Notes under the pieces: generated by a model
The model's input: the letters and a program-made list of their open reading frames with translations, nothing else
The model's database searches: none
What the model was told of the DNA's origin: nothing
Part shown: piece by piece, positions 5,574-23,557 of the stretch
How positions within the stretch are numbered: the stretch's first letter is position 1
How the letters are laid out: each line of letters starts with the position of its first letter
Translations under genes and position numbers: made by a program
Assembly (NCBI RefSeq): GCF_000018305.1
Contig: NC_009954.1
Location: forward strand, 1,620,001-1,652,000
Reading direction: 5' to 3'
Length of the DNA: 32,000 nt
Source of the DNA: Caldivirga maquilingensis IC-167
Lineage (GTDB): Archaea > Thermoproteota > Thermoprotei > Thermoproteales > Thermocladiaceae

Positions 5574-7067
5574 TCAAGCCAAGTGATCAATTTTAAGGTT
5601 TATTAGACTTGCCAACTCATTAATGGAATTGGTTAATTTAGCCACAGCTTCATGATGGGATTGGGAACCGGTAACATACCTATTGATTATATCGTAAACA
5701 TGCATTGATACCTTACCGCAGTTCACGCAACCATTATTTGCATTAATCACTGAGTAGCTGACGTATGCTAATAATGATATTAACCATTTCATTAATGAGT
5801 TAACTTCATGGAGCTTAATAGCTGAATTAACGCTCATTGAGTTAACGTCCTCCTGAAGACCACTGGTTGGTATATTGTGAATAATGGATGGTGAAGCCAA
5901 TTCCCTAAGCCTAGCAGTTAATGCTGCAGCGGCGTATTGGGTTAGCATTAATCCAATTCGCCAAGGTCCATTAGCCAGGTAATTACTGGTATTGTTTATT
6001 TCCCTCCTCATTAATTGGGCTATCTGCCTCTCAAGTAGGTTGCCTAGGGTGGATAATGATGTGTTGAGGAGGTCAGTGGATAATGCCAGGTATTGGCCGT
6101 GGAAGTGGCATGTTGAGTATACGTTATCATTAATAATCACTGGGTTATCACTCACGGAGTTAACCTCATTCATAATATTGCGTAGGGACCATGATAATGC
6201 ATCCATAATAGGTCCAATTACCTGTGGAATACATCTAATTGAGTATGGGTCCTGAACCCTACCACTGGTGTTTACATTCGCACTATCACTTAGCGACTCC
6301 TGTATAATTCTCGCCACTTCAACTTCACCATAATGCAGCTTAATGGAGTTAACCTCAATACTGAGTGGCCGTATACTTGCCCGTGAAGCCTCAATCATAA
6401 GTATGATAATTGCCATTGCAGCCCTTATCAATGTGTATGCATCCCAAATACCCAAGGAGGCTAGGGCAGCGCTGTAGCTGGTTCCATTAATTAACGATAA
6501 TGCCTCCTTATAACCAAGCCTTAATTCATCAAGACCCAATGCCTTAAACACCTCAGCGCTATTCATGACTTCATTGCGATACTTAACCAAACCCTTACCG
6601 AGTAATGCAAGGGCTATGTGAGCCAGGGGTGCTAAGTCACCGGATGCCCCCACTGATCCATACTTGGGGACAAGTGGAGTTATGTTGAGGTTTAGGAATT
6701 GAATTAATCTTTCAATAATTCGACCCCTAATGCCGCTATAACCCAATGATAATTGATGCGCCCTAATTAACATGGTAGCCCTAACCCAATCATCAGGTGC
6801 GTAATCACCAACACCCATGGAATGATCAATAAGCATCTCCAGCGAGTACCTTGCAACATCCTCCGGATTAACGGTAACATTATGTAAGTCACCAAGACCA
6901 GTGTTAACACCATAAATCTTAATGCCACTGTTAACGGCTTTCTCAAGCACATCCAGTGATTTATTCATTAAATTTAAGGCACGTTCACTTACCTTAACCT
7001 CCTCGTGGTTTCGAGCAACATTAACCACATCAACAAGGTTAATTCTTTCCCCAATTTCCACCGTCAT
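5574..7067 (-). CDS. hutH: Histidine ammonia-lyase
   Basis: The MIO-forming motif GSVGASGDLAPLAH is present, with full-length HAL/PAL-family similarity (SLINGT, QDPYS.RC.PQV). Confidence 0.93.
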   Translation of the reverse strand: MTVEIGERINLVDVVNVARNHEEVKVSERALNLMNKSLDVLEKAVNSGIKIYGVNTGLGDLHNVTVNPEDVARYSLEMLIDHSMGVGDYAPDDWVRATMLIRAHQLSLGYSGIRGRIIERLIQFLNLNITPLVPKYGSVGASGDLAPLAHIALALLGKGLVKYRNEVMNSAEVFKALGLDELRLGYKEALSLINGTSYSAALASLGIWDAYTLIRAAMAIIILMIEASRASIRPLSIEVNSIKLHYGEVEVARIIQESLSDSANVNTSGRVQDPYSIRCIPQVIGPIMDALSWSLRNIMNEVNSVSDNPVIINDNVYSTCHFHGQYLALSTDLLNTSLSTLGNLLERQIAQLMRREINNTSNYLANGPWRIGLMLTQYAAAALTARLRELASPSIIHNIPTSGLQEDVNSMSVNSAIKLHEVNSLMKWLISLLAYVSYSVINANNGCVNCGKVSMHVYDIINRYVTGSQSHHEAVAKLTNSINELASLINLKIDHLA

Positions 7068-15281: not shown

Positions 15282-15866
15282 GTGGCACTTGTAATTAACC
15301 TAAGAAGTGATTGGTGGCTTAGCCTCTATGAATTTACCAGAATCCTTCATCATAAACTCGGTGATTCACTAATCATGGTTATTGGATCACAGAACGGGGA
15401 ACCAATACTTAATGATACGAATACTTTAGTAGTCGTCCGTAGCATTGATGATAATGTTAAATTAAGCGCCGCTGAAGCTGCATTGAAAGTTAATGATAAG
15501 TTTAAGAACACGATAAGTTACATGATAACGACTGAAGATGATAAGGAAACAATAAGTAAATTCATTCATATATCTCCTGAGGATTGGTCGGATTATGAAG
15601 ATGCATTACGTGAATTCAAACAGTTACTTAAAGAGAATTTAGGGGATGAGCTTACTTCAATCATTGCACTACCTAAGGGTATCTTCATTAATGAAAGTAA
15701 TGTACTCGTAATCGTTAATGAGATTAAAAATGATGTAAGACTTAAAGTTGCTAAGGCTGCATTAGAGGTTAATGATAAGTTTAAGAGCACTATAAGCTAC
15801 ATGATAGTAGATAAGGGAGACCATGACATCATATCCAAGTTTAGGGAAATCGGACAAGTTAATTAA
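15282..15866 (+). CDS. Tandem-duplicated minimal-nucleotidyltransferase (MNT)-like protein lacking the catalytic DxD motif
   Basis: Two repeats of about 93 aa. R1 is ..EFTRILHHKLGDSLIMVIGSQNGEPILNDTNTLVVV...AALKVNDKFKNTISYMI...ISKF. R2 is ..EFKQLLKENLGDELTSIIALPKGIFINESNVLVIV...AALEVNDKFKSTISYMI...ISKF. Both align to the bona fide MNT in this window (VYLFGSVAEGTYTLSSDIDVLVV). GS is kept only in R1, and DxD is replaced in both copies. Confidence 0.6.
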   Translation: MALVINLRSDWWLSLYEFTRILHHKLGDSLIMVIGSQNGEPILNDTNTLVVVRSIDDNVKLSAAEAALKVNDKFKNTISYMITTEDDKETISKFIHISPEDWSDYEDALREFKQLLKENLGDELTSIIALPKGIFINESNVLVIVNEIKNDVRLKVAKAALEVNDKFKSTISYMIVDKGDHDIISKFREIGQVN

Positions 15867-16176
15867 GGAGGCGCAGTTGGATTTAGAGGTAGGAAATCTC
15901 AACAAATGTGCGTCTGCGAGTTACTTTTCAGTGACAAGAGCTGTGGAGAAGCTACTGGAGAGGGCACGTATGAACGTACCCAGGAGGGATGATGAGTTGG
16001 CTAATGTACTTAAGCACATGGGTTACACTGAAGAGGCTGTGTTAATGCTTTACTTATATGAGATGAGGAAGAGAGCTGATTATACTGATTACGAAATAAC
16101 AATTAAGGAAGCACGTAAAGCCTTGGAGATAGCTATAAGATTAAGGAACCTAATTATACAAATCATGACGCAGTAA
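15823..16176 (+). CDS. HEPN-domain protein (COG1895-like)
   Basis: A four-helix pattern: ...CASASYFSVTRAVEKLL......LYEMRKRADYTDYEITIKEARKALEIA. It resembles the HEPN consensus (a.s.aYYA...a..aLL ... R..aDY .... t.eeA). It overlaps the upstream MNT-like gene by 44 nt. Confidence 0.6.
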   Translation: MTSYPSLGKSDKLIKEAQLDLEVGNLNKCASASYFSVTRAVEKLLERARMNVPRRDDELANVLKHMGYTEEAVLMLYLYEMRKRADYTDYEITIKEARKALEIAIRLRNLIIQIMTQ

Positions 16177-17637: not shown

Positions 17638-19515
17638 CTAGGATTTCTGTTCACTGCTTAGGAATTCATTAATAGCCTTCTCAACATCACGTGAATCCAC
17701 CCTACCCCTATAATCCCTCATTATGATGGACATTAACTTACCCTTATCCTTAACACCATTATTAATCAATGATTTAACTATTGAGGCGACCTCACTATAC
17801 TGCATTCTCCATAAGCCCCCCTCATTAATAATATCCTCAACACCCCTCCTCCCACCCTCCTCCACGTACTTCTGAATAGTATCCTGAATAGCCTCCCTAG
17901 TTACCCTACCGTTAACGTAGAGTTCAAGGAGTTTATCAACAACTTGAATTATGTTGAGTTGCTCAATGTTCTTACCCATGCCTCCAATCATGTTAACGAA
18001 TATTGACGCCACGAGGGTTGGGTTAACCTTATCCTCATACTTCTTAATCAACTCCTCAGCCTCAATGGAGTACTCGGATGATGCCAATTGCCTAGCCAAC
18101 TCCCTGCTCATACCCATTGAGGTGTAGCGTTCAATCTGCTTATCTATGGGTTCAGGAACATACTTATCAGCCTTAGCCAGGAGCTCGAAGGTAATCCTAA
18201 TGGGCCTAAGGTCAGTTTCAGGATACATTCTAGCTGCACCGGGTCTAGGCCTCATGAAGTACGTTGTACCATCCTCCTTAGCCGCCCTAGTCTCCTCAGG
18301 CACGCCGTCGAATGCCTCCTTAATCCTATCCACAATAACCTTAGCAGCCTCCTGTAGTTCAACACCCTGTGGACCCATTAGGAGTATGAATGAATCAACC
18401 CCAAGCCTACTAGCCACCGCCGCCACCTCCTCCTTACTTATCCCATACCCAGGTAACTCATCACTATGCATTAACCCACCCAATCTAGTCCAGGCCCTAA
18501 CCCTATCAGCTAGCTCACTTCCGAATCTTCTTCCAGGTTGAAGTTCAAAGCCAAGTATCCCCCTTAACCCAGGGGCTTTAAGTGCAGCCACTATTCCCCC
18601 CTCGTTAATCGTTCTCTTAACTATACTTGACTTAGTTGATGAGAAAACACTTGTTACATCAATGAGGTCGGGTGTGTAGGATTCCCTTGATAAGCCCCTG
18701 TTGTTTAACTCATCCTTAATCTTAAGTAGGTTAACTTGCCTAAGGGCCTCATACTCAATAACCTTAGGTATTAGTGATAATTCCGGTACACCCTTAACCT
18801 CTGTTTTAGCCCCCTTGGCAATGGATATGTTTAAGTCCTGCCTAATAGCCCCAAGCCCCCTCTTAGTGCGCCTAGTGTTCATGATAGTCCTCCCTATTAA
18901 CCAAGCAACCTCCATTATTGAATTAGGCGGGTACTCCATAGGTCCTGTGGAAACCTCAATTAAAGGTATACCTAACCTATCTAACCTATACACAGTCACG
19001 TCACCCTTATCCTCAATTCTCCTGGCTGCATCCTCCTCAAGGGATATTGTCCATATGGGTACCTTGTAGTTTAGGAATTCAGCTAAACCATCATGAGCAA
19101 TAACCATGGTCCTTTGGAAACCCGACACATTGGATCCATCAATAACAACCTTCCTCATAACGTACACTTCATCAAACACCTTAGCGTTAAACACCTTTGA
19201 AACAGCTAAGGCTAGGAGCAGGGACTCCTCGTCAGGCTCATGGGGTGGCTCCTCATCCAACTCCACGAGGCAGGTAACGTCATTAAAACCCTCATACATC
19301 ATAGTCTTCATCTTCCTGAACTCCCATAAGGCGGCTGGGTCAATGGAACTCAACTCACTCATTGCTGGTCTAAGCCTCCTAATTATCCTGAAATCCGGCT
19401 CAGTATTCTTCAACTCCGGTTTACAGTGGCAGAACAGTTTCCTCCCAGTATCCAATTGAATATGTATCTCTAAACCCACCTTAAGTCCAAGCGCCCTATA
19501 GTCAAGTTTAACCAC
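17638..19515 (-). CDS. gatE: Glutamyl-tRNA(Gln) amidotransferase subunit E
   Basis: N-terminal LKVGLEIHIQLDT.RKLFC.C, an archaea-specific length of about 625 aa, and GatB/E core motifs. gatD is not adjacent in this window. Confidence 0.95.
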   Translation of the reverse strand: MVKLDYRALGLKVGLEIHIQLDTGRKLFCHCKPELKNTEPDFRIIRRLRPAMSELSSIDPAALWEFRKMKTMMYEGFNDVTCLVELDEEPPHEPDEESLLLALAVSKVFNAKVFDEVYVMRKVVIDGSNVSGFQRTMVIAHDGLAEFLNYKVPIWTISLEEDAARRIEDKGDVTVYRLDRLGIPLIEVSTGPMEYPPNSIMEVAWLIGRTIMNTRRTKRGLGAIRQDLNISIAKGAKTEVKGVPELSLIPKVIEYEALRQVNLLKIKDELNNRGLSRESYTPDLIDVTSVFSSTKSSIVKRTINEGGIVAALKAPGLRGILGFELQPGRRFGSELADRVRAWTRLGGLMHSDELPGYGISKEEVAAVASRLGVDSFILLMGPQGVELQEAAKVIVDRIKEAFDGVPEETRAAKEDGTTYFMRPRPGAARMYPETDLRPIRITFELLAKADKYVPEPIDKQIERYTSMGMSRELARQLASSEYSIEAEELIKKYEDKVNPTLVASIFVNMIGGMGKNIEQLNIIQVVDKLLELYVNGRVTREAIQDTIQKYVEEGGRRGVEDIINEGGLWRMQYSEVASIVKSLINNGVKDKGKLMSIIMRDYRGRVDSRDVEKAINEFLSSEQKS

Positions 19516-19682: not shown

Positions 19683-19712
19683 ATAGTGTAAAATTTAAAA
19701 ACTAAACACTAT
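19683..19712. promoter_or_regulatory. 7-bp inverted repeat (ATAGTGT-N16-ACACTAT) bracketing the TATA-like box AAATTTAAAA
   Basis: The arms at 19683-19689 and 19706-19712 are exact reverse complements. The TATA-like box at 19691-19700 is centred about 30 nt upstream of the ABC ATPase ATG at 19725. Confidence 0.45.
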
Positions 19713-19724
19713 CAGTTTTATCTG

Positions 19725-20579
19725 ATGCAGAATTCAAACAATATAATAGTGGAGGTTAATGGACTATGGAAGGCATTCAATGATGTGATTGTTAATGAGG
19801 ATATTAGTATTCATGTTGATGAAGGTGAAGTAGTATCCATACTGGGTCCAAATGGAGCTGGTAAAACCACACTACTTAGGCAAATCTACGGTGAATTAAG
19901 GCCTGATAAGGGTAGGGTCTTAATAATGGGTATGAATCCAGGTAAGGCTAAGGATAGGGGCATAATGAGTGTTGTCCCCCAGGAGGCTACACCATTTCAA
20001 TTACTTAAGGTTACTGAGCATGTTGAGATGCTTGTTAGGCTTAGGGGTGTACCTAAGGGTATGGTTAAGCATTGTGTTAAGGAAGCTATTAATGCAGTTG
20101 GCCTAGGGGATTACGAGAATAAGCTCATTGATGAATTATCAGGAGGCATGAAGAGACTAGTCCTAGTGGCCTCAGCAATAGCCTGTGGACCAAGATTAAT
20201 AATACTTGATGAACCAACCGTTGGTATTGATGCCCAGAATAGGAGGAGTATTTGGGACGCCATTAGGGGCGCCAGGGATAATGGATCAGCGATAATATTA
20301 ACCACGCATTATGTTCATGAGACAGAGGAACTCAGTGATAGAGTCTACTTAATTAATAGGAGGATACTCATGGAGGGTTCACCAAGTGAACTTAGGAGGA
20401 GGCTACCTTGGGTTGAGGTCAGGGGCGATAATGGTGATAAGCCGATTAGGGTTAATTGGGATGAGGCAATTAATATAATTAATGAGTTAGTTAAGAGGAG
20501 GGTTAGGTTTGAGGTTAAGGAGCCTTCCCTTGAGGACGTTTTCATTGAGGTATTCGGTGGTGGTCGTGAGACTGAGTAA
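19725..20579 (+). CDS. ABC transporter ATP-binding protein (ABC-2/drug-exporter type)
   Basis: Walker A GPNGAGKTT, Q-loop, signature LSGGMKRL, Walker B ILDEPT, and an H-loop (TTHY). Confidence 0.92.
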   Translation: MQNSNNIIVEVNGLWKAFNDVIVNEDISIHVDEGEVVSILGPNGAGKTTLLRQIYGELRPDKGRVLIMGMNPGKAKDRGIMSVVPQEATPFQLLKVTEHVEMLVRLRGVPKGMVKHCVKEAINAVGLGDYENKLIDELSGGMKRLVLVASAIACGPRLIILDEPTVGIDAQNRRSIWDAIRGARDNGSAIILTTHYVHETEELSDRVYLINRRILMEGSPSELRRRLPWVEVRGDNGDKPIRVNWDEAINIINELVKRRVRFEVKEPSLEDVFIEVFGGGRETE

Positions 20580-21306
20580 CATCTATACTGTGACTAAGTA
20601 CATTATGCTTAGTAGTAGGCATTGGATTTACGCATCATTAGCCTTCACATTAATGTTCCCAATCCTATGGCTCATACTACTTAGGGTTGTGGGTAATCCC
20701 CAGTACATGGGTTACTTCATAGTGGGTACTGTGGTTAACACGAGTTTCCTAGTACCATTCTTAGGTACATCTCAGGACATAGCCTACTTTAGGCGGGGAT
20801 CAGCAATATACGCGCTCTTATTCTCCAATGGTGCAGACCACTGGGATATAGCGCTCGGCTACATTACCCAATTAATTGCATTAAACCTACCATCAGTGGT
20901 TTCACTCCTAATACTGTCAACGTTAATAATAGGTACAAGCTACGGTGTAGTACAGGTATTAGCCACAGTAGCCACCGCAGTATTCATATCACTCTCCTCA
21001 GCTCTACTAGGCTATGCATTAGCCATGGGAATCAGGAACTACAGGATTGTGAATCAGGCAGCCCAGGTAATTCCATGGCCACTACTCCTACTAGCCCCAG
21101 TCTACTATCCAATCACCATACTGCCCCCAGTACTGAGGTACGTTAGCCTAGCACTACCCACCACTTACATGGCTTTGGCTATTAATGGTTCACTAAGCCT
21201 TAACTCAATGGAGTTAATTAAGGGATTACTAGGGCTCTTAGCCTATTCCTCAGCGTCAATCTTAATAGCCAGGTACGCGGTAATTAGGGGTGAGGTGAAT
21301 GGTTGA
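20566..21306 (+). CDS. ABC-2 type transporter permease
   Basis: Six hydrophobic segments and the typical ABC-2 size. The start is uncertain: GTG codons at 20557-20566 overlap the ATPase stop by about 14-23 nt, the next ATG is at 20605, and the ORF-track ATG at 20509 would overlap by 71 nt. Confidence 0.75.
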   Translation: MRLSNIYTVTKYIMLSSRHWIYASLAFTLMFPILWLILLRVVGNPQYMGYFIVGTVVNTSFLVPFLGTSQDIAYFRRGSAIYALLFSNGADHWDIALGYITQLIALNLPSVVSLLILSTLIIGTSYGVVQVLATVATAVFISLSSALLGYALAMGIRNYRIVNQAAQVIPWPLLLLAPVYYPITILPPVLRYVSLALPTTYMALAINGSLSLNSMELIKGLLGLLAYSSASILIARYAVIRGEVNG

Positions 21307-21617
21307 GTTTAAAAGTGAATTCCCCAGAGGACTTGGTGAGGATTGGGAGAGCCTTATCAAACCCCCTGAGGGTTCGGATACTGTTAATGCTAGTGAAGAA
21401 TCCAACCTTCATACAGGATATTGCCCAAAGCCTACACATACCCTACGCCCTAGCTCACATGCATTTGAAAATACTGGAGGAGTCAGGCCTAATAGAGGGC
21501 TCCTACGTAGTGGAGGAGGAGCCGAGGCCCCATTTAAGGAAGGTGTACAGGGTGAGGGACTTCAGGTTAATAATAGACAAGCAGCTGCTAGAGCAATTGG
21601 CGGGTTCATCCAAGTGA
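21303..21617 (+). CDS. ArsR/SmtB-type winged-helix transcriptional regulator
   Basis: LSNPLRVRILLMLVKNPTFIQDIAQSLHIPYALAHMHLKILEESGLIEG fits the ArsR HTH consensus (l.np.R..IL..L......v.eia..l.is.s.vs.HLk.L.eaGli). A TTG (21303) or GTG (21315) start overlaps the permease stop. Confidence 0.8.
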   Translation: MSLKVNSPEDLVRIGRALSNPLRVRILLMLVKNPTFIQDIAQSLHIPYALAHMHLKILEESGLIEGSYVVEEEPRPHLRKVYRVRDFRLIIDKQLLEQLAGSSK

Positions 21618-21619
21618 GA

Positions 21620-21955
21620 ATGCCCTACGCATCAATAGTGGTAATGCTCATTTCAGGCTTAGTAATAGGTGCAGGGGTTCCAGTGGCCTTATTCTACATG
21701 GCGTTTAAGGTTGGTTCATGGCCATTCCTCATAGCCGCAACAATACTAGGTGCCTTAGCCATATTCTGGGGAGCTGTAATAGCTATAGTTGCCTTCGTCC
21801 CAATACTGGATAGTATTGATAATCAGGTGAAGGTTATGAATGATCAGTTAAACACCTATAGGGCATTCATAAGGAGTCTACTTGAGGAACTTGATGACGT
21901 TAACACTGTGCTTAAGGAGATTAGGGATGATTTAAAGAAGGTGAGTGAGGCATGA
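21620..21955 (+). CDS. Small membrane protein with a C-terminal coiled-coil-like helix (111 aa)
   Basis: The ATG at 21620 is 2 nt after the ArsR stop. There are two or three hydrophobic spans (IVVMLISGLVIGAGVPVALFYMAF; WPFLIAATILGALAIFWGAVIAIVAFVPIL), followed by an amphipathic tail ...LLEELDDVNTVLKEIRDDLKKV. Confidence 0.6.
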   Translation: MPYASIVVMLISGLVIGAGVPVALFYMAFKVGSWPFLIAATILGALAIFWGAVIAIVAFVPILDSIDNQVKVMNDQLNTYRAFIRSLLEELDDVNTVLKEIRDDLKKVSEA

Positions 21956-22071
21956 GTGAACTTAAGTACGCCAATGCCAGTGATGAGGAGGTTATGGAGA
22001 AGATAAGGGAGAGAATTAGGGAGATGAAGCAGCTCCTCGGTGAAATAAGGGACATGCTTAAGGTGAGGTAA
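21952..22071 (+). CDS. Micro-ORF, 39-aa helical peptide (MSELKYANASDEEVMEKIRERIREMKQLLGEIRDMLKVR)
   Basis: Its ATG overlaps the upstream stop (gcATGa). Its TAA overlaps the downstream ATG (TAATG). It is below the ORF-track size cut-off. Confidence 0.4.
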   Translation: MSELKYANASDEEVMEKIRERIREMKQLLGEIRDMLKVR

Positions 22072-22586
22072 TGGCTGAGAAATTCGATAAATACTATGAC
22101 TACTTCAGCAGTATGCATGGGGGAATTAGGATTAGACCTAGGTCAATCAACCTAGGATTACTGAGGATTAACCTAGGTGGTGGATCACTAGTGGAGTTAC
22201 GAACCGGAGGCAGGGGTATGGCTTCAAGGATTAATGCCACTGGGGTTATGGAGGGTGAGCATGTTGAATTAGTGAATCCACCTGAGGATGTTAGGGTTAT
22301 TAGGGGTAGTTTTGTTAAGGTTCAGAATGGTGACTTAGAGGCTGTTGAGGGTGAGGAAGTAGTCCTATATAATGTTAATGTTAGTAGGGTTACTGGGAGG
22401 AGGGTAAAGATAATGAATAGTGACGTTAATCACATTGAGGCCGAGGATGCAACACTAATTAATACAGATGCTGGAGAAGTCATAGTATCACGTGGCGAAT
22501 TCATAAACTGCGACATAGATACCCTTGAATACAGGGAATCATATAAAGTCGTAAATACTGATGTAAAGAACCTGAGGAAGGCTTAG
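22071..22586 (+). CDS. Beta-solenoid-type repeat protein (bactofilin/DUF4097-like periodicity), 171 aa
   Basis: At least six consecutive repeats of about 15 residues with the pattern [VF]-x-[VLI]-x-N-x-[DN]-[VLA]-x-x-[VI]-x-[GA], for example VKVQNGDLEAVEGEE / VVLYNVNVSRVTGRR / VKIMNSDVNHIEAED / ATLINTDAGEVIVSRGE. No TM segment. Confidence 0.55.
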   Translation: MAEKFDKYYDYFSSMHGGIRIRPRSINLGLLRINLGGGSLVELRTGGRGMASRINATGVMEGEHVELVNPPEDVRVIRGSFVKVQNGDLEAVEGEEVVLYNVNVSRVTGRRVKIMNSDVNHIEAEDATLINTDAGEVIVSRGEFINCDIDTLEYRESYKVVNTDVKNLRKA

Positions 22587-22594
22587 GTGAATTC

Positions 22595-22981
22595 ATGAGC
22601 AGTAGGGATGAGATTAATACGTTAATTCGAAGGGCAAGGGATTTCCTAGCCACAGCCAGGTACCAGTTCAATAATGGTATCTACGATTTAGCTGTCTTTA
22701 ACCTAGAGCAGTCCCTGCAACTCTTCCTGAAGGCAAGAATACTGGAACATGGTGTTCAATACCCCCGCACCAATAGTATTAGGTATTTACTGAAATTCCT
22801 TCATGATATAGCTCATGATTACGAGAAGCCAATAATCAGTGGCATTCTTAGTAAATACCTCTTCGAGCTGGGTGTTCTCGAGGACGCGTATATAAATGCT
22901 CGTTACGTTCCTAGAGAGTACACTAGGGAGGAGGCTGAGGCCCTCATTAAGGTTGTGGAGGAGGTGATGAATAGTGTATGA
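22595..22981 (+). CDS. HEPN-domain protein (COG2250-type), toxin-like partner of MNT
   Basis: ARDFLATARYQFNNGIYDLAVFNLEQSLQLFLKA... and the C-terminal LEDAYINARYVPREYTREEAE match classical HEPN (..yYIptRYP...yt.eeA). GGTGA lies 5-9 nt upstream of the ATG. Confidence 0.85.
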   Translation: MSSRDEINTLIRRARDFLATARYQFNNGIYDLAVFNLEQSLQLFLKARILEHGVQYPRTNSIRYLLKFLHDIAHDYEKPIISGILSKYLFELGVLEDAYINARYVPREYTREEAEALIKVVEEVMNSV

Positions 22982-23288
22982 TTATTTAATTAATGAAGCG
23001 AAGAAAAGGCAGGAGATCTTCAGGAATCTAGACAAATACTTAAGAATCATTAAGGACACTGTTAAGGAATTGGATCAGGGGGCTGAGGTTTATTTATTCG
23101 GATCAGTGGCTGAGGGAACGTACACCTTATCCAGTGACATAGACGTATTAGTGGTAACTATGCTAAATCCAGGCATTGTACTTAAGAGGCTTTGGGAAGT
23201 GGGCATTAGGGATCCCTTTGAAGTACATGTACGGACACCAGATAAATTAAAATACTACAGTAGATTCAGTAAATTAATCAAGATGTAA
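22974..23288 (+). CDS. Minimal nucleotidyltransferase (MNT, Pol-beta superfamily)
   Basis: The canonical motif LFGSVAEGTYTLSSDIDVLVV (GS...DxD) is present. The GTG start overlaps the HEPN stop by 8 nt. Confidence 0.9.
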   Translation: MYDYLINEAKKRQEIFRNLDKYLRIIKDTVKELDQGAEVYLFGSVAEGTYTLSSDIDVLVVTMLNPGIVLKRLWEVGIRDPFEVHVRTPDKLKYYSRFSKLIKM

Positions 23289-23557
23289 TATCATATTGAC
23301 TACAACCAACCCATGAATCAGTACCTATGGCACATTTACGCAACTATTTGCTATTACCTCTAAGTAGTGAAGGGTAGGAAGACACTAATGGGGATCCCTT
23401 GCCATGACTAGAATCCATTGTTAAGGTCATTGGTTCAGTGCTTTAAGGGGATGCAATGAGATGATTTTTATAATTTAAATGATTGTTTAATAAATTTAAT
23501 AATGATTACTTATCTTAAGGGTAAAATTTAATTAATCCCCAATAATGAGCATTCAGG

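Follow-up and report, generated by a model that had tools for sequence, protein, structure and literature searches.

We have analysed a stretch of 32,000 nucleotides (nt) from Caldivirga maquilingensis IC-167 (contig NC_009954.1, positions 1,620,001 to 1,652,000, hereafter the window), in which eight co-directional open reading frames (ORFs) follow one another on the + strand from 19725 to 23288. The species assignment agreed with the sixth product of the string, a 171-residue protein that is 100% identical to a hypothetical protein of C. maquilingensis. The genes encode an ABC transporter ATPase and its permease, an ArsR-type regulator, a transmembrane (TM) protein, a 39-residue microprotein, a beta-solenoid protein and a HEPN-MNT pair (MNT, minimal nucleotidyltransferase). 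A first-pass annotation had treated all eight as one system. Our comparison of related loci indicated instead that the string is made of two units, a core operon (19686-22586) and, behind it, the HEPN-MNT pair (22595-23288). The features are listed below with the evidence for each.

19686..19701, + strand: BRE-like element (BRE, transcription factor B recognition element) and TATA box (GTGTAAAA-TTTAAAAA), head promoter; direct reading, within a conserved block of seven Thermoproteales loci
19707..19724, + strand: conserved block CACTATCAGTTTTATCTG between TATA box and start codon, candidate initiator/operator; alignment
19725..20579, + strand: ABC transporter ATPase, DrrA-like, 284 residues; Pfam ABC_tran 8.5e-30
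20566..21306, + strand: ABC-2 type permease, 246 residues, GTG start at 20566; Pfam ABC2_membrane 9.5e-11
21303..21617, + strand: ArsR-type winged-helix regulator, 104 residues, TTG start; Pfam HTH_5 1.3e-9
21614..21955, + strand: membrane protein with two TM segments (2-TM) and a long C-terminal helix, 113 residues; AlphaFold2 model, without a Pfam model
21952..22071, + strand: helical microprotein, 39 residues; conservation and profile match to the tail of the TM protein
22071..22586, + strand: beta-solenoid protein, 171 residues; AlphaFold2 model and repeat
22595..22981, + strand: HEPN domain protein, 128 residues, toxin-type half of the pair; Pfam HEPN 2.9e-28
22974..23288, + strand: MNT, 104 residues, GTG start, antitoxin-type half of the pair; Pfam NTP_transf_2 2.9e-12
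23465..23469, + strand: first oligo-T run (TTTTT) past the string, first candidate archaeal termination signal; T-run scan

Junctions, promoter and termination signals

All seven junctions inside the string are overlaps or gaps of at most 8 nt, compared with 2 of the 12 same-strand neighbour pairs elsewhere in the window. The permease start (GTG 20566) overlaps the ATPase stop (20579) by 14 nt, the ArsR start (TTG 21303) and the permease stop (21306) share a TTGA, and the ArsR stop (21617) forms a GTGA with the start of the TM gene (GTG 21614). These are followed by an ATGA overlap (TM stop 21955, microprotein ATG 21952), a TAATG overlap (microprotein stop and solenoid ATG, both at 22071), an 8-nt gap (solenoid stop 22586, HEPN ATG 22595) and an 8-nt overlap (HEPN stop 22981, MNT GTG 22974). 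The description of eight packed co-directional genes given by the first-pass annotation was borne out: all eight ORFs were found where it had placed them, and the overlaps that it reported at the permease, ArsR and microprotein junctions, together with its HEPN and MNT spacings of 8 nt, were read in the sequence. We differ from it on the TM protein, which it had started at an ATG 2 nt after the ArsR stop. The gene callers and the homologue N-termini (start-[KR]-[LM]-P-Y) agreed in favouring GTG 21614 as the probable start, and not ATG 21620. Translation of the permease most likely begins at GTG 20566, because its homologues are 246 residues long and keep the N-terminal RLSNxYTV, which is encoded upstream of ATG 20605.

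The TATA box TTTAAAAA (19694-19701) is preceded by a BRE-like GTAAAA and is centred about 27 nt before ATG 19725. A TATA box at this distance from the start codon is the geometry of leaderless crenarchaeal mRNAs, and the spacing implies that the first gene is leaderless or nearly so. One such promoter was found at the head of the string, as the first reading of the sequence had claimed. The only other TATA-like match on the + strand inside the string is a TTTAAAA (21308-21314) within the first ArsR codons. It is probably fortuitous, since these codons are absent in Vulcanisaeta; if functional, it would yield a transcript without the start of the regulator.

GGTGA-type Shine-Dalgarno (SD) motifs lie 5-15 nt before the ArsR, microprotein, solenoid, HEPN and MNT starts, and weaker versions precede those of the permease and the TM protein. 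The + strand holds no run of five or more T between 19700 and 23464, a T5 run being the usual archaeal termination signal. The scan for sigma-70 promoters and intrinsic terminators was uninformative, its models being bacterial and the host archaeal, and the Rfam scan of the window returned no RNA family. Based on the tight junctions, the one head promoter, the internal SD motifs and the absence of a T5 run before 23465, the eight genes are likely carried on a single transcript.

The region ahead of the first gene was aligned for seven Thermoproteales loci, from Caldivirga, Vulcanisaeta, Thermocladium, Pyrobaculum and one metagenomic relative. The alignment holds for the ~45 nt ahead of the start codon and breaks down farther upstream. 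Between the TATA box and the start codon, Caldivirga and Pyrobaculum share the block CACTATCAGTTT, which reads CAGTATAAATTT in Vulcanisaeta; an imperfect inverted repeat, AAAACT (19698-19703) and AGTTTT (19714-19719), flanks the block. Archaeal repressors commonly bind between the TATA box and the start codon, and we infer for this promoter-proximal block the role of a candidate operator only. In Bathyarchaeal loci (L013, L016/L017, L023, L025; such L numbers denote loci of our census) two direct copies of an AAA(A/G)TTTATATAT-like element, spaced by about 21-22 nt, lie upstream of the regulator gene; one of them presumably serves as the TATA box, and the remaining copy may mark a second promoter or an operator.

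The four-gene core and its companions

We have assembled a census of 76 loci, which fall into 50 distinct lineages when the TM protein is clustered at 95% identity, and scored each component with hidden Markov models (HMMs). An ArsR-type gene was found immediately upstream of the TM gene in 48 of 48 evaluable lineages, the micro-ORF immediately downstream of it in 47 of 47, and a solenoid gene after the micro-ORF in 45 of 45. The median gaps between the HMM envelopes were 3, 15 and 14 nt for the regulator-TM, TM-microprotein and microprotein-solenoid steps, respectively. The quartet is spread over the Thermoproteales, the Bathyarchaeia and the Verstraetearchaeota, with Vulcanisaeta moutnovskia, Thermoproteus tenax and Pyrobaculum neutrophilum among its cultivable carriers. 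All eight genes of the string are found together again in Caldivirga sp. UBA161, and the first six keep their order in Vulcanisaeta distributa, Vulcanisaeta sp. JCM 16159, Thermocladium modestius, Pyrobaculum neutrophilum and one metagenomic relative.

This supported that the regulator, the TM protein, the microprotein and the solenoid form an invariant unit, inherited as a block and translationally coupled. We regard the quartet as the core because its order holds wherever the ABC pair stands, and also when that pair is replaced. The annotation had proposed these four genes as one functional unit and suggested a comparison across archaea; the orthologous core genes stayed together in the evaluable lineages and were not scattered, with an order invariant in ~45-48 independent lineages from three classes of Thermoproteota. 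Our literature searches, which paired bactofilin with archaeal lineages, ArsR, arCOG and gene neighbourhood, returned no description of the module, although absence elsewhere is not proven by them. The quartet is thus apparently undescribed.

The usual partner of this unit is a transporter, able to move and to be exchanged. In C. maquilingensis the ATPase matches the drrA subfamily model of NCBIfam at 5.1e-57, below the curated cut-off, and is 63-85% identical to proteins at the same position in Thermoproteales relatives. The ATPase is accompanied by a separate ABC-2 membrane subunit, and the string has no binding-protein gene, which is the composition of an ABC-2 exporter. An ABC ATPase and an ABC-2 permease lie upstream of the module in 10 of 10 Thermoproteales (counting the frameshifted draft L008 as present), and an ABC ATPase and permease lie downstream of it in 20 of 26 other lineages. 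The place of the ABC pair is taken by an MFS transporter in L041, L042 and L063, and by an OPT transporter in L019, L020 and L044, counted as one lineage. The first-pass annotation had asked whether the ABC-2 genes and the HEPN-MNT pair are constant or variable companions. For the exporter, the answer is that it accompanies the unit even on changing sides, with an MFS or OPT transporter sometimes found instead. In three JCM draft genomes (L008-L010), sequencing errors have probably split the ABC genes into several frames. The upstream region of Vulcanisaeta distributa JCM 11216 (L008 6114-6881) is unlike that of Caldivirga and contains an ORF with a C-terminal CxxC...CxxC and the look of a TnpB/OrfB-like transposase.

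The HEPN-MNT pair behaved as a variable companion: of 37 evaluable lineages, two have it next to the module, Caldivirga and L021. The L021 copy (6251-6974, - strand) is convergent with the module, on the opposite strand, and its proteins are 59% and 63% identical to the Caldivirga pair. The Caldivirga MNT matches the MntA antitoxin model of NCBIfam at 2.3e-5, below the cut-off, and direct reading revealed the motif GS...DxD (FGSVAEG...SSDIDVLV; FGSVAEGTYTLSSDIDV). A candidate Rx4-6H motif (R62-x6-H69) and an ARY motif were seen by eye in the HEPN protein. Like type VII HEPN-MNT systems, the pair has both defining domains in adjacent genes with an 8-nt overlap; here, HEPN comes first and MNT second, and the pair is appended to an unrelated operon, probably relying on its promoter. 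The distribution argues for an accessory add-on appended to the 3' end of the operon in the Caldivirga lineage, probably co-transcribed with the core but not functionally integrated, and annotation should keep it separate from the core system. L021 is a distant Thermoproteales relative, and the closer Vulcanisaeta, Thermocladium and L027 are without the pair, a pattern that could come from an old association, later inverted and lost several times, or from more than one insertion at the 3' end of the operon.

The first-pass annotation had also suggested a defence island. An anti-virus defence or abortive-infection island would have the ABC ATPase, the HEPN-MNT pair and the membrane proteins acting jointly. 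Besides the pair itself, this could draw on weak matches of the MNT to candidate families of PADLOC and on matches of the ATPase to AAA_21/AbiEii-like and mad3/mad8 models. However, the PADLOC matches (ABC ATPase, wHTH and MNT; wHTH, winged helix-turn-helix) reflect generic P-loop, wHTH and nucleotidyltransferase similarities and assemble into no system architecture, with no match for the HEPN protein or for the TM protein, microprotein and solenoid. The ATPase has a canonical ABC-2 permease as its partner, the HEPN-MNT pair is absent from 35 of the 37 lineages, and the Bathyarchaeal module sits in stable housekeeping surroundings (Lhr helicase ... DNA ligase) and not in a variable island. We therefore consider a joint defence function very improbable. 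In detail, the Bathyarchaeal neighbourhood (L013, L016, L023-L026) comprises an Lhr-type helicase, a SAM methyltransferase, a 4HBT thioesterase and a CxxCxxCC protein upstream, and in some loci a DNA ligase downstream of the module, which suggests that the module belongs to the chromosomal core and not to a mobile island.

Two further features of the window were recorded. A second overlapping gene pair lies at 15282-16176 (+ strand), with products of 194 and 117 residues and an overlap of 44 nt. The 117-residue product has a weak HEPN match in precomputed Pfam data, and Caldivirga sp. UBA161 keeps both genes. Their sequences are not related to those of the HEPN-MNT genes in the string, and they may form another toxin-antitoxin-like pair. 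The divergent upstream neighbour of the string (17638-19515, - strand) is a gene of the archaeal Glu-tRNA(Gln) amidotransferase subunit E type, with GatB_N, GAD and GatB_Yqey domains. It is shared with Caldivirga sp. UBA161 and not with the other genera examined, so that the chromosomal position of the module is not conserved beyond Caldivirga.

Proteins of the core

The regulator passes the Pfam HTH_5 cut-off (1.3e-9) and matches HTH_metalloreg of NCBIfam at 3.1e-9, below the cut-off. The closest solved structure is that of Phr, the heat-shock regulator of P. furiosus (2P4W, 2.4e-9). Direct reading revealed no cysteine among its 104 residues, which excludes a Cys-based alpha3 metal site, and no alpha5-type D/H cluster was seen in them by eye. 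Its conserved histidines fall within the recognition-helix motif PYALAHMHL, of which PY.LAH.HL is common to all module orthologues. The Pfam scan listed HTH_5, HTH_20 and MarR_2 for this protein, with DUF4004 not among the matches.

The Pfam and NCBIfam scans gave nothing usable for the TM protein, the 39-residue ORF or the 171-residue protein. The AlphaFold2 model of the TM protein (predicted local distance difference test, pLDDT, of 86) contains helices at residues 5-33 and 36-112, that is, a hairpin continuing into a long helix. A GxGVP in the first TM segment and a C-terminal RA..R..LEELD....L..IR..L are invariant or nearly so. The basic N-termini across the family suggest an N-in/C-in topology, which would place the conserved helix in the cytoplasm. 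The family exceeds 200 clusters at 90% identity, and every organism-named match belongs to the Thermoproteota (Thermoproteales, many Bathyarchaeia, Verstraetearchaeota). A Foldseek search of the model against the PDB found no structural relative (best E 2.3), and comparison with the HAAS families DUF1700, DUF1129 and DUF1048 and with the Toastrack families DUF4097, DUF2154 and DUF2807 gave no match at E<=1.

The microprotein measures 39 residues in Thermoproteales and 43-46 elsewhere, with the consensus LKY..lSDEE......rl.EMK.LL.EIRD.LK across classes. Between two Caldivirga species its gene shows 10 synonymous and 2 nonsynonymous differences (ratio of nonsynonymous to synonymous change, pN/pS, of 0.04), and pN/pS is 0.2-0.4 for more distant pairs. 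These values, and its presence in 47 of 47 lineages, upheld the earlier call of a gene and indicate that the micro-ORF is a real one under purifying selection. When its profile was aligned to that of the C-terminal helix of the TM protein with hhalign, leaving two TM fragments out of the profile, the match reached a probability of 91% (E 1.2e-6) and a score of 33.6, compared with at most 15.1 in 30 column shuffles. As the match is far above the shuffles, the microprotein is a free-standing paralogue of the tail of the TM protein. An NCBIfam match of the microprotein to a phospholipase-D anti-phage protein (E 4e-4) covers a coiled-coil stretch of the 895-position profile and was disregarded.

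This paralogy bears on the possibility that genome compaction has packed together unrelated functions, namely a multidrug-type ABC-2 exporter under ArsR control, three small proteins of unrelated role and a toxin-antitoxin pair, whose co-transcription would then say nothing about function. ArsR-type regulators are common beside efflux pumps, the HEPN-MNT pair is demonstrably independent of the rest, and the ABC pairs of the upstream and downstream architectures are distantly related, all of which such packing would accommodate. It does not explain why the order of the four genes is invariant in ~45-48 lineages from three classes, with the regulator tied to the three small-protein genes, not to the ABC pair, or why the microprotein and TM genes are linked by descent. 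The census largely refutes packing for the core, and as an account of the whole string we judge it improbable.

The AlphaFold2 model of the 171-residue protein is all-beta over residues 55-171 and has a disordered N-terminus; averaged over blocks of 10 residues, the confidence is 89-98 from residue 61 onward. A repeat of 15-16 residues carries an asparagine ladder (N85, 101, 116, 131, 146, 162). Model and repeat thus agreed with the beta-solenoid call of the first-pass annotation. The family is tiny: exhaustive HMMER searching of 1.84 billion proteins gave 11 representatives, and a word-index search with the 171-residue protein returned only 3 Caldivirga proteins. A PDB sequence search with the solenoid profile produced chance-level matches only.

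A different picture came from the same slot in Bathyarchaeia and Verstraetearchaeota, which is filled by proteins of 259-293 residues. The five that were scanned (L013, L019, L041, L052, L063) all passed the Pfam Bactofilin cut-off of 27.9 bits, with scores of 35.8-61.6; the long counterparts match DUF2807 below threshold only (E 0.003-0.009), and the 171-residue protein of the window matches none of the HAAS or Toastrack families. Both forms share an N-terminal motif, MAEK[FY]D.Y, present as MAEKFDKYYDYF in Caldivirga and as MAEKFDEYEKIL, MAEKYDEYEKIL and MSERLKEYEDYF in the bactofilin-type counterparts. The Caldivirga MAEKFDKYY corresponds to MAEKFDEYEK (L058) and MAEKYDEYEK, in proteins that score 52-58 bits on PF04519. 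From these features we regard the Thermoproteales solenoid as a candidate orthologue of a bactofilin-domain protein, shortened and diverged, and as a putative member of that family at most. The fold is not an orphan; other lineages carry a bactofilin-domain protein at the same position. The profile and structure searches that had been recommended for the TM and 171-residue proteins were productive for the slot counterparts, which are Pfam Bactofilin proteins, and not for the Caldivirga proteins themselves, which have no significant PDB relative.

In the long bactofilin-type proteins (L013 6475-7356; L017, L019, L023, L041, L052), an internal hydrophobic segment rich in Gly and Phe, e.g. VEGFVLFGIPIFGKRF, separates the bactofilin repeats from a C-terminal mini-solenoid. 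This segment could act as a membrane-inserting loop. A similar phi-phi-G motif (INLGLLRINLGGG) directly follows the N-terminal motif in the short Thermoproteales solenoids, and the comparison suggests that the short form arose through loss of the central repeats.

A possible sequestration switch and its known relatives

We propose that a membrane-anchored bactofilin-type scaffold holds the regulator and thereby controls the operon and its transporter, a reading drawn from analogy that we put slightly short of an even chance. The solenoid would build a sub-membrane scaffold. The tail of the TM protein, the microprotein and the conserved N-terminal segment of the solenoid would form a helical assembly tying this scaffold to the membrane and keeping the wHTH regulator off DNA. 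A perturbation of the membrane or envelope, or the substrate load of the transporter, would alter the assembly and so release or recapture the regulator. Once free, it would act on the conserved promoter-proximal block, tuning the exporter and the module itself. The idea that the regulator is coupled to the membrane state through the TM and solenoid proteins was already present in the first-pass annotation, and it fits the best-supported analogy, with BacR-BacEF (PMC13649987) and with wHTH-membrane-Toastrack systems (10.1101/2020.09.24.301986).

More tentatively, this could be a phylum-wide archaeal partner-switch, in which the scaffold, the 2-TM anchor and a helix-mimic microprotein of 39-46 residues tether and release an ArsR-type factor, coupling the state of the membrane or of transport to the expression of an efflux transporter. 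The microprotein would then either compete with the anchor tail or co-assemble with it, and so exert control by mimicking a helix; we found no description of such an element for bactofilin systems.

A serious rival is a cytoskeletal or envelope-assembly scaffold. In that case the anchored bactofilin-type protein would position or gate the transporter, for instance in lipid, glycan or peptide export, and the ArsR-type protein would be a plain autorepressor, not sequestered. Bactofilins are best known as membrane-bound scaffolds that localise other proteins (10.1101/617639; PMC12364344). The module nearly always adjoins a transporter, and the tight translational coupling suggests a stoichiometric complex. 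However, the class of the transporter is interchangeable (ABC-2, MFS, OPT) or the transporter is absent, and exchangeability fits a relation of regulator and target better than a fixed physical machine. The regulator also equals the structural genes in invariance (48/48) and in tightness of coupling, with a median gap of 3 nt to the TM gene, which exceeds the need of a generic repressor. We consider a scaffold with a plain autorepressor unlikely, without setting it aside.

Several observations weigh against a scaffold that sequesters the regulator. On the protein side, polymerisation of the solenoid is an assumption. Bactofilin was not among the Pfam matches of the 171-residue protein and 10 relatives even at E<=10, and Foldseek of the solenoid against the PDB returned generic beta-helices (best E 0.2, none significant), among them the T. 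thermophilus bactofilin 6RIA at rank 40, likewise not significant. Aligning the Thermoproteales solenoid with the bactofilin-type counterparts in hhalign gave probabilities of 1-6%, all short of significance. What weak signal there is falls on the N-terminal motif and on the C-terminal mini-solenoid of the long proteins, and it leaves out their central SGS repeats. On the DNA side, the promoter-proximal block could be merely an initiator or transcription-start element. Its inverted repeat is AT-rich and imperfect, with varying spacing, and the operator-like motif is not enriched elsewhere in the window (3 matches, 3.9 expected). Finally, L052 has a HAD hydrolase as neighbour and no transporter adjoining the module, and the ABC pairs of the upstream and downstream architectures are only 33% similar in the ATPase and marginally so in the permease. 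Because of this low similarity, the two kinds of pair may be independent recruitments.

The position of the conserved DNA element is also relevant to a device for DNA-membrane tethering or segregation, in which the wHTH protein would sit on a chromosomal site and be held to a bactofilin filament by the TM protein and the microprotein, much as PadC/ParB are linked to BacNOP in Myxococcus. The module does join a DNA-binding domain to a membrane anchor, and Myxococcus bactofilins scaffold proteins of chromosome segregation (10.1101/617639). Yet no ParA-, ParB- or SegA-like gene is linked to the module, its constant neighbour is a transporter, and the conserved element lies exactly at the operon's own promoter, fitting autoregulation. 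Such a tether seems to us a distant prospect.

To our knowledge, many Thermoproteota lack bacterial-style two-component and sigma/anti-sigma systems, and little is known of how they sense the membrane or envelope. Extending from Thermoproteales to sedimentary Bathyarchaeia and Verstraetearchaeota, the four-gene module is a testable candidate for archaeal membrane or envelope sensing. If the proposed sequestration of the regulator is true, bactofilin biology would extend to archaea in which we found none described, and in a regulatory rather than a morphogenetic role. The module also adds two new small-protein families from outside the domain libraries, the 2-TM anchor (>200 clusters) and the microprotein of 39-46 residues.

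The closest parallel is found in B. subtilis, where BacR (YhbD) is encoded with the bactofilins BacE and BacF, which bind BacR and block its DNA binding (PMC13649987). BacR resides at the membrane in a bactofilin-dependent manner and moves to the nucleoid on vancomycin treatment (PMC13649987). In both cases a DNA-binding regulator shares one operon with bactofilin-type solenoids, and the logic that we propose for the module would be the same, with an autoregulated operon and a scaffold-held regulator freed on envelope stress. This parallel suggests that bactofilin sequestration of transcription factors may be a general principle. The two systems differ in that the module regulator is of the HTH_5 type and BacR of the DUF4004 type. 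Unlike yhbDEF as described, the module adds a 2-TM anchor and a helix-mimic microprotein, both obligatory, as well as a near-constant transporter partner, and the Caldivirga solenoid does not score as a bactofilin. Moreover, these archaea have no peptidoglycan wall of the kind targeted by vancomycin, so the signal of the module must differ.

When compared with canonical bactofilins (PF04519: BacA, CcmA, BacNOP) and halofilins (PMC11459167), the module solenoids have the same beta-solenoid core with short terminal extensions, and their conserved N-terminal segment may have a part in binding the membrane or a partner. Searched by term, the halofilin paper returned no mention of Thermoproteota lineages, operons or synteny, so the gene context reported here is not treated in it. 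Unlike canonical bactofilins, the long archaeal proteins (259-293 residues) carry the internal hydrophobic FG-rich segment and a second, C-terminal mini-solenoid, and the Thermoproteales form (149-175 residues) has the repeat of 15-16 residues in place of SGS-type repeats.

A second likeness is with the wHTH-membrane-Toastrack systems (PadR-HAAS, GntR-ABC-permease and LiaF-type; 10.1101/2020.09.24.301986), which also combine a small wHTH protein, a helical membrane transducer and a beta-helical platform below the membrane. One Toastrack variant likewise carries an ABC ATPase and a permease, and the proposed role in envelope signalling is the same: PadR-HAAS-Toastrack systems have been put forward as envelope-signal transducers, alternatives to two-component signalling (10.1101/2020.09.24.301986). 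The differences are that no homologous parts were detected in the module, that its HTH is of the ArsR type and not PadR or GntR, that its solenoids score as Bactofilin, that its microprotein is without a described equivalent and that its lineage is archaeal. By analogy, the module would work like BacR-BacEF and the wHTH-membrane-Toastrack systems while being a member of neither.

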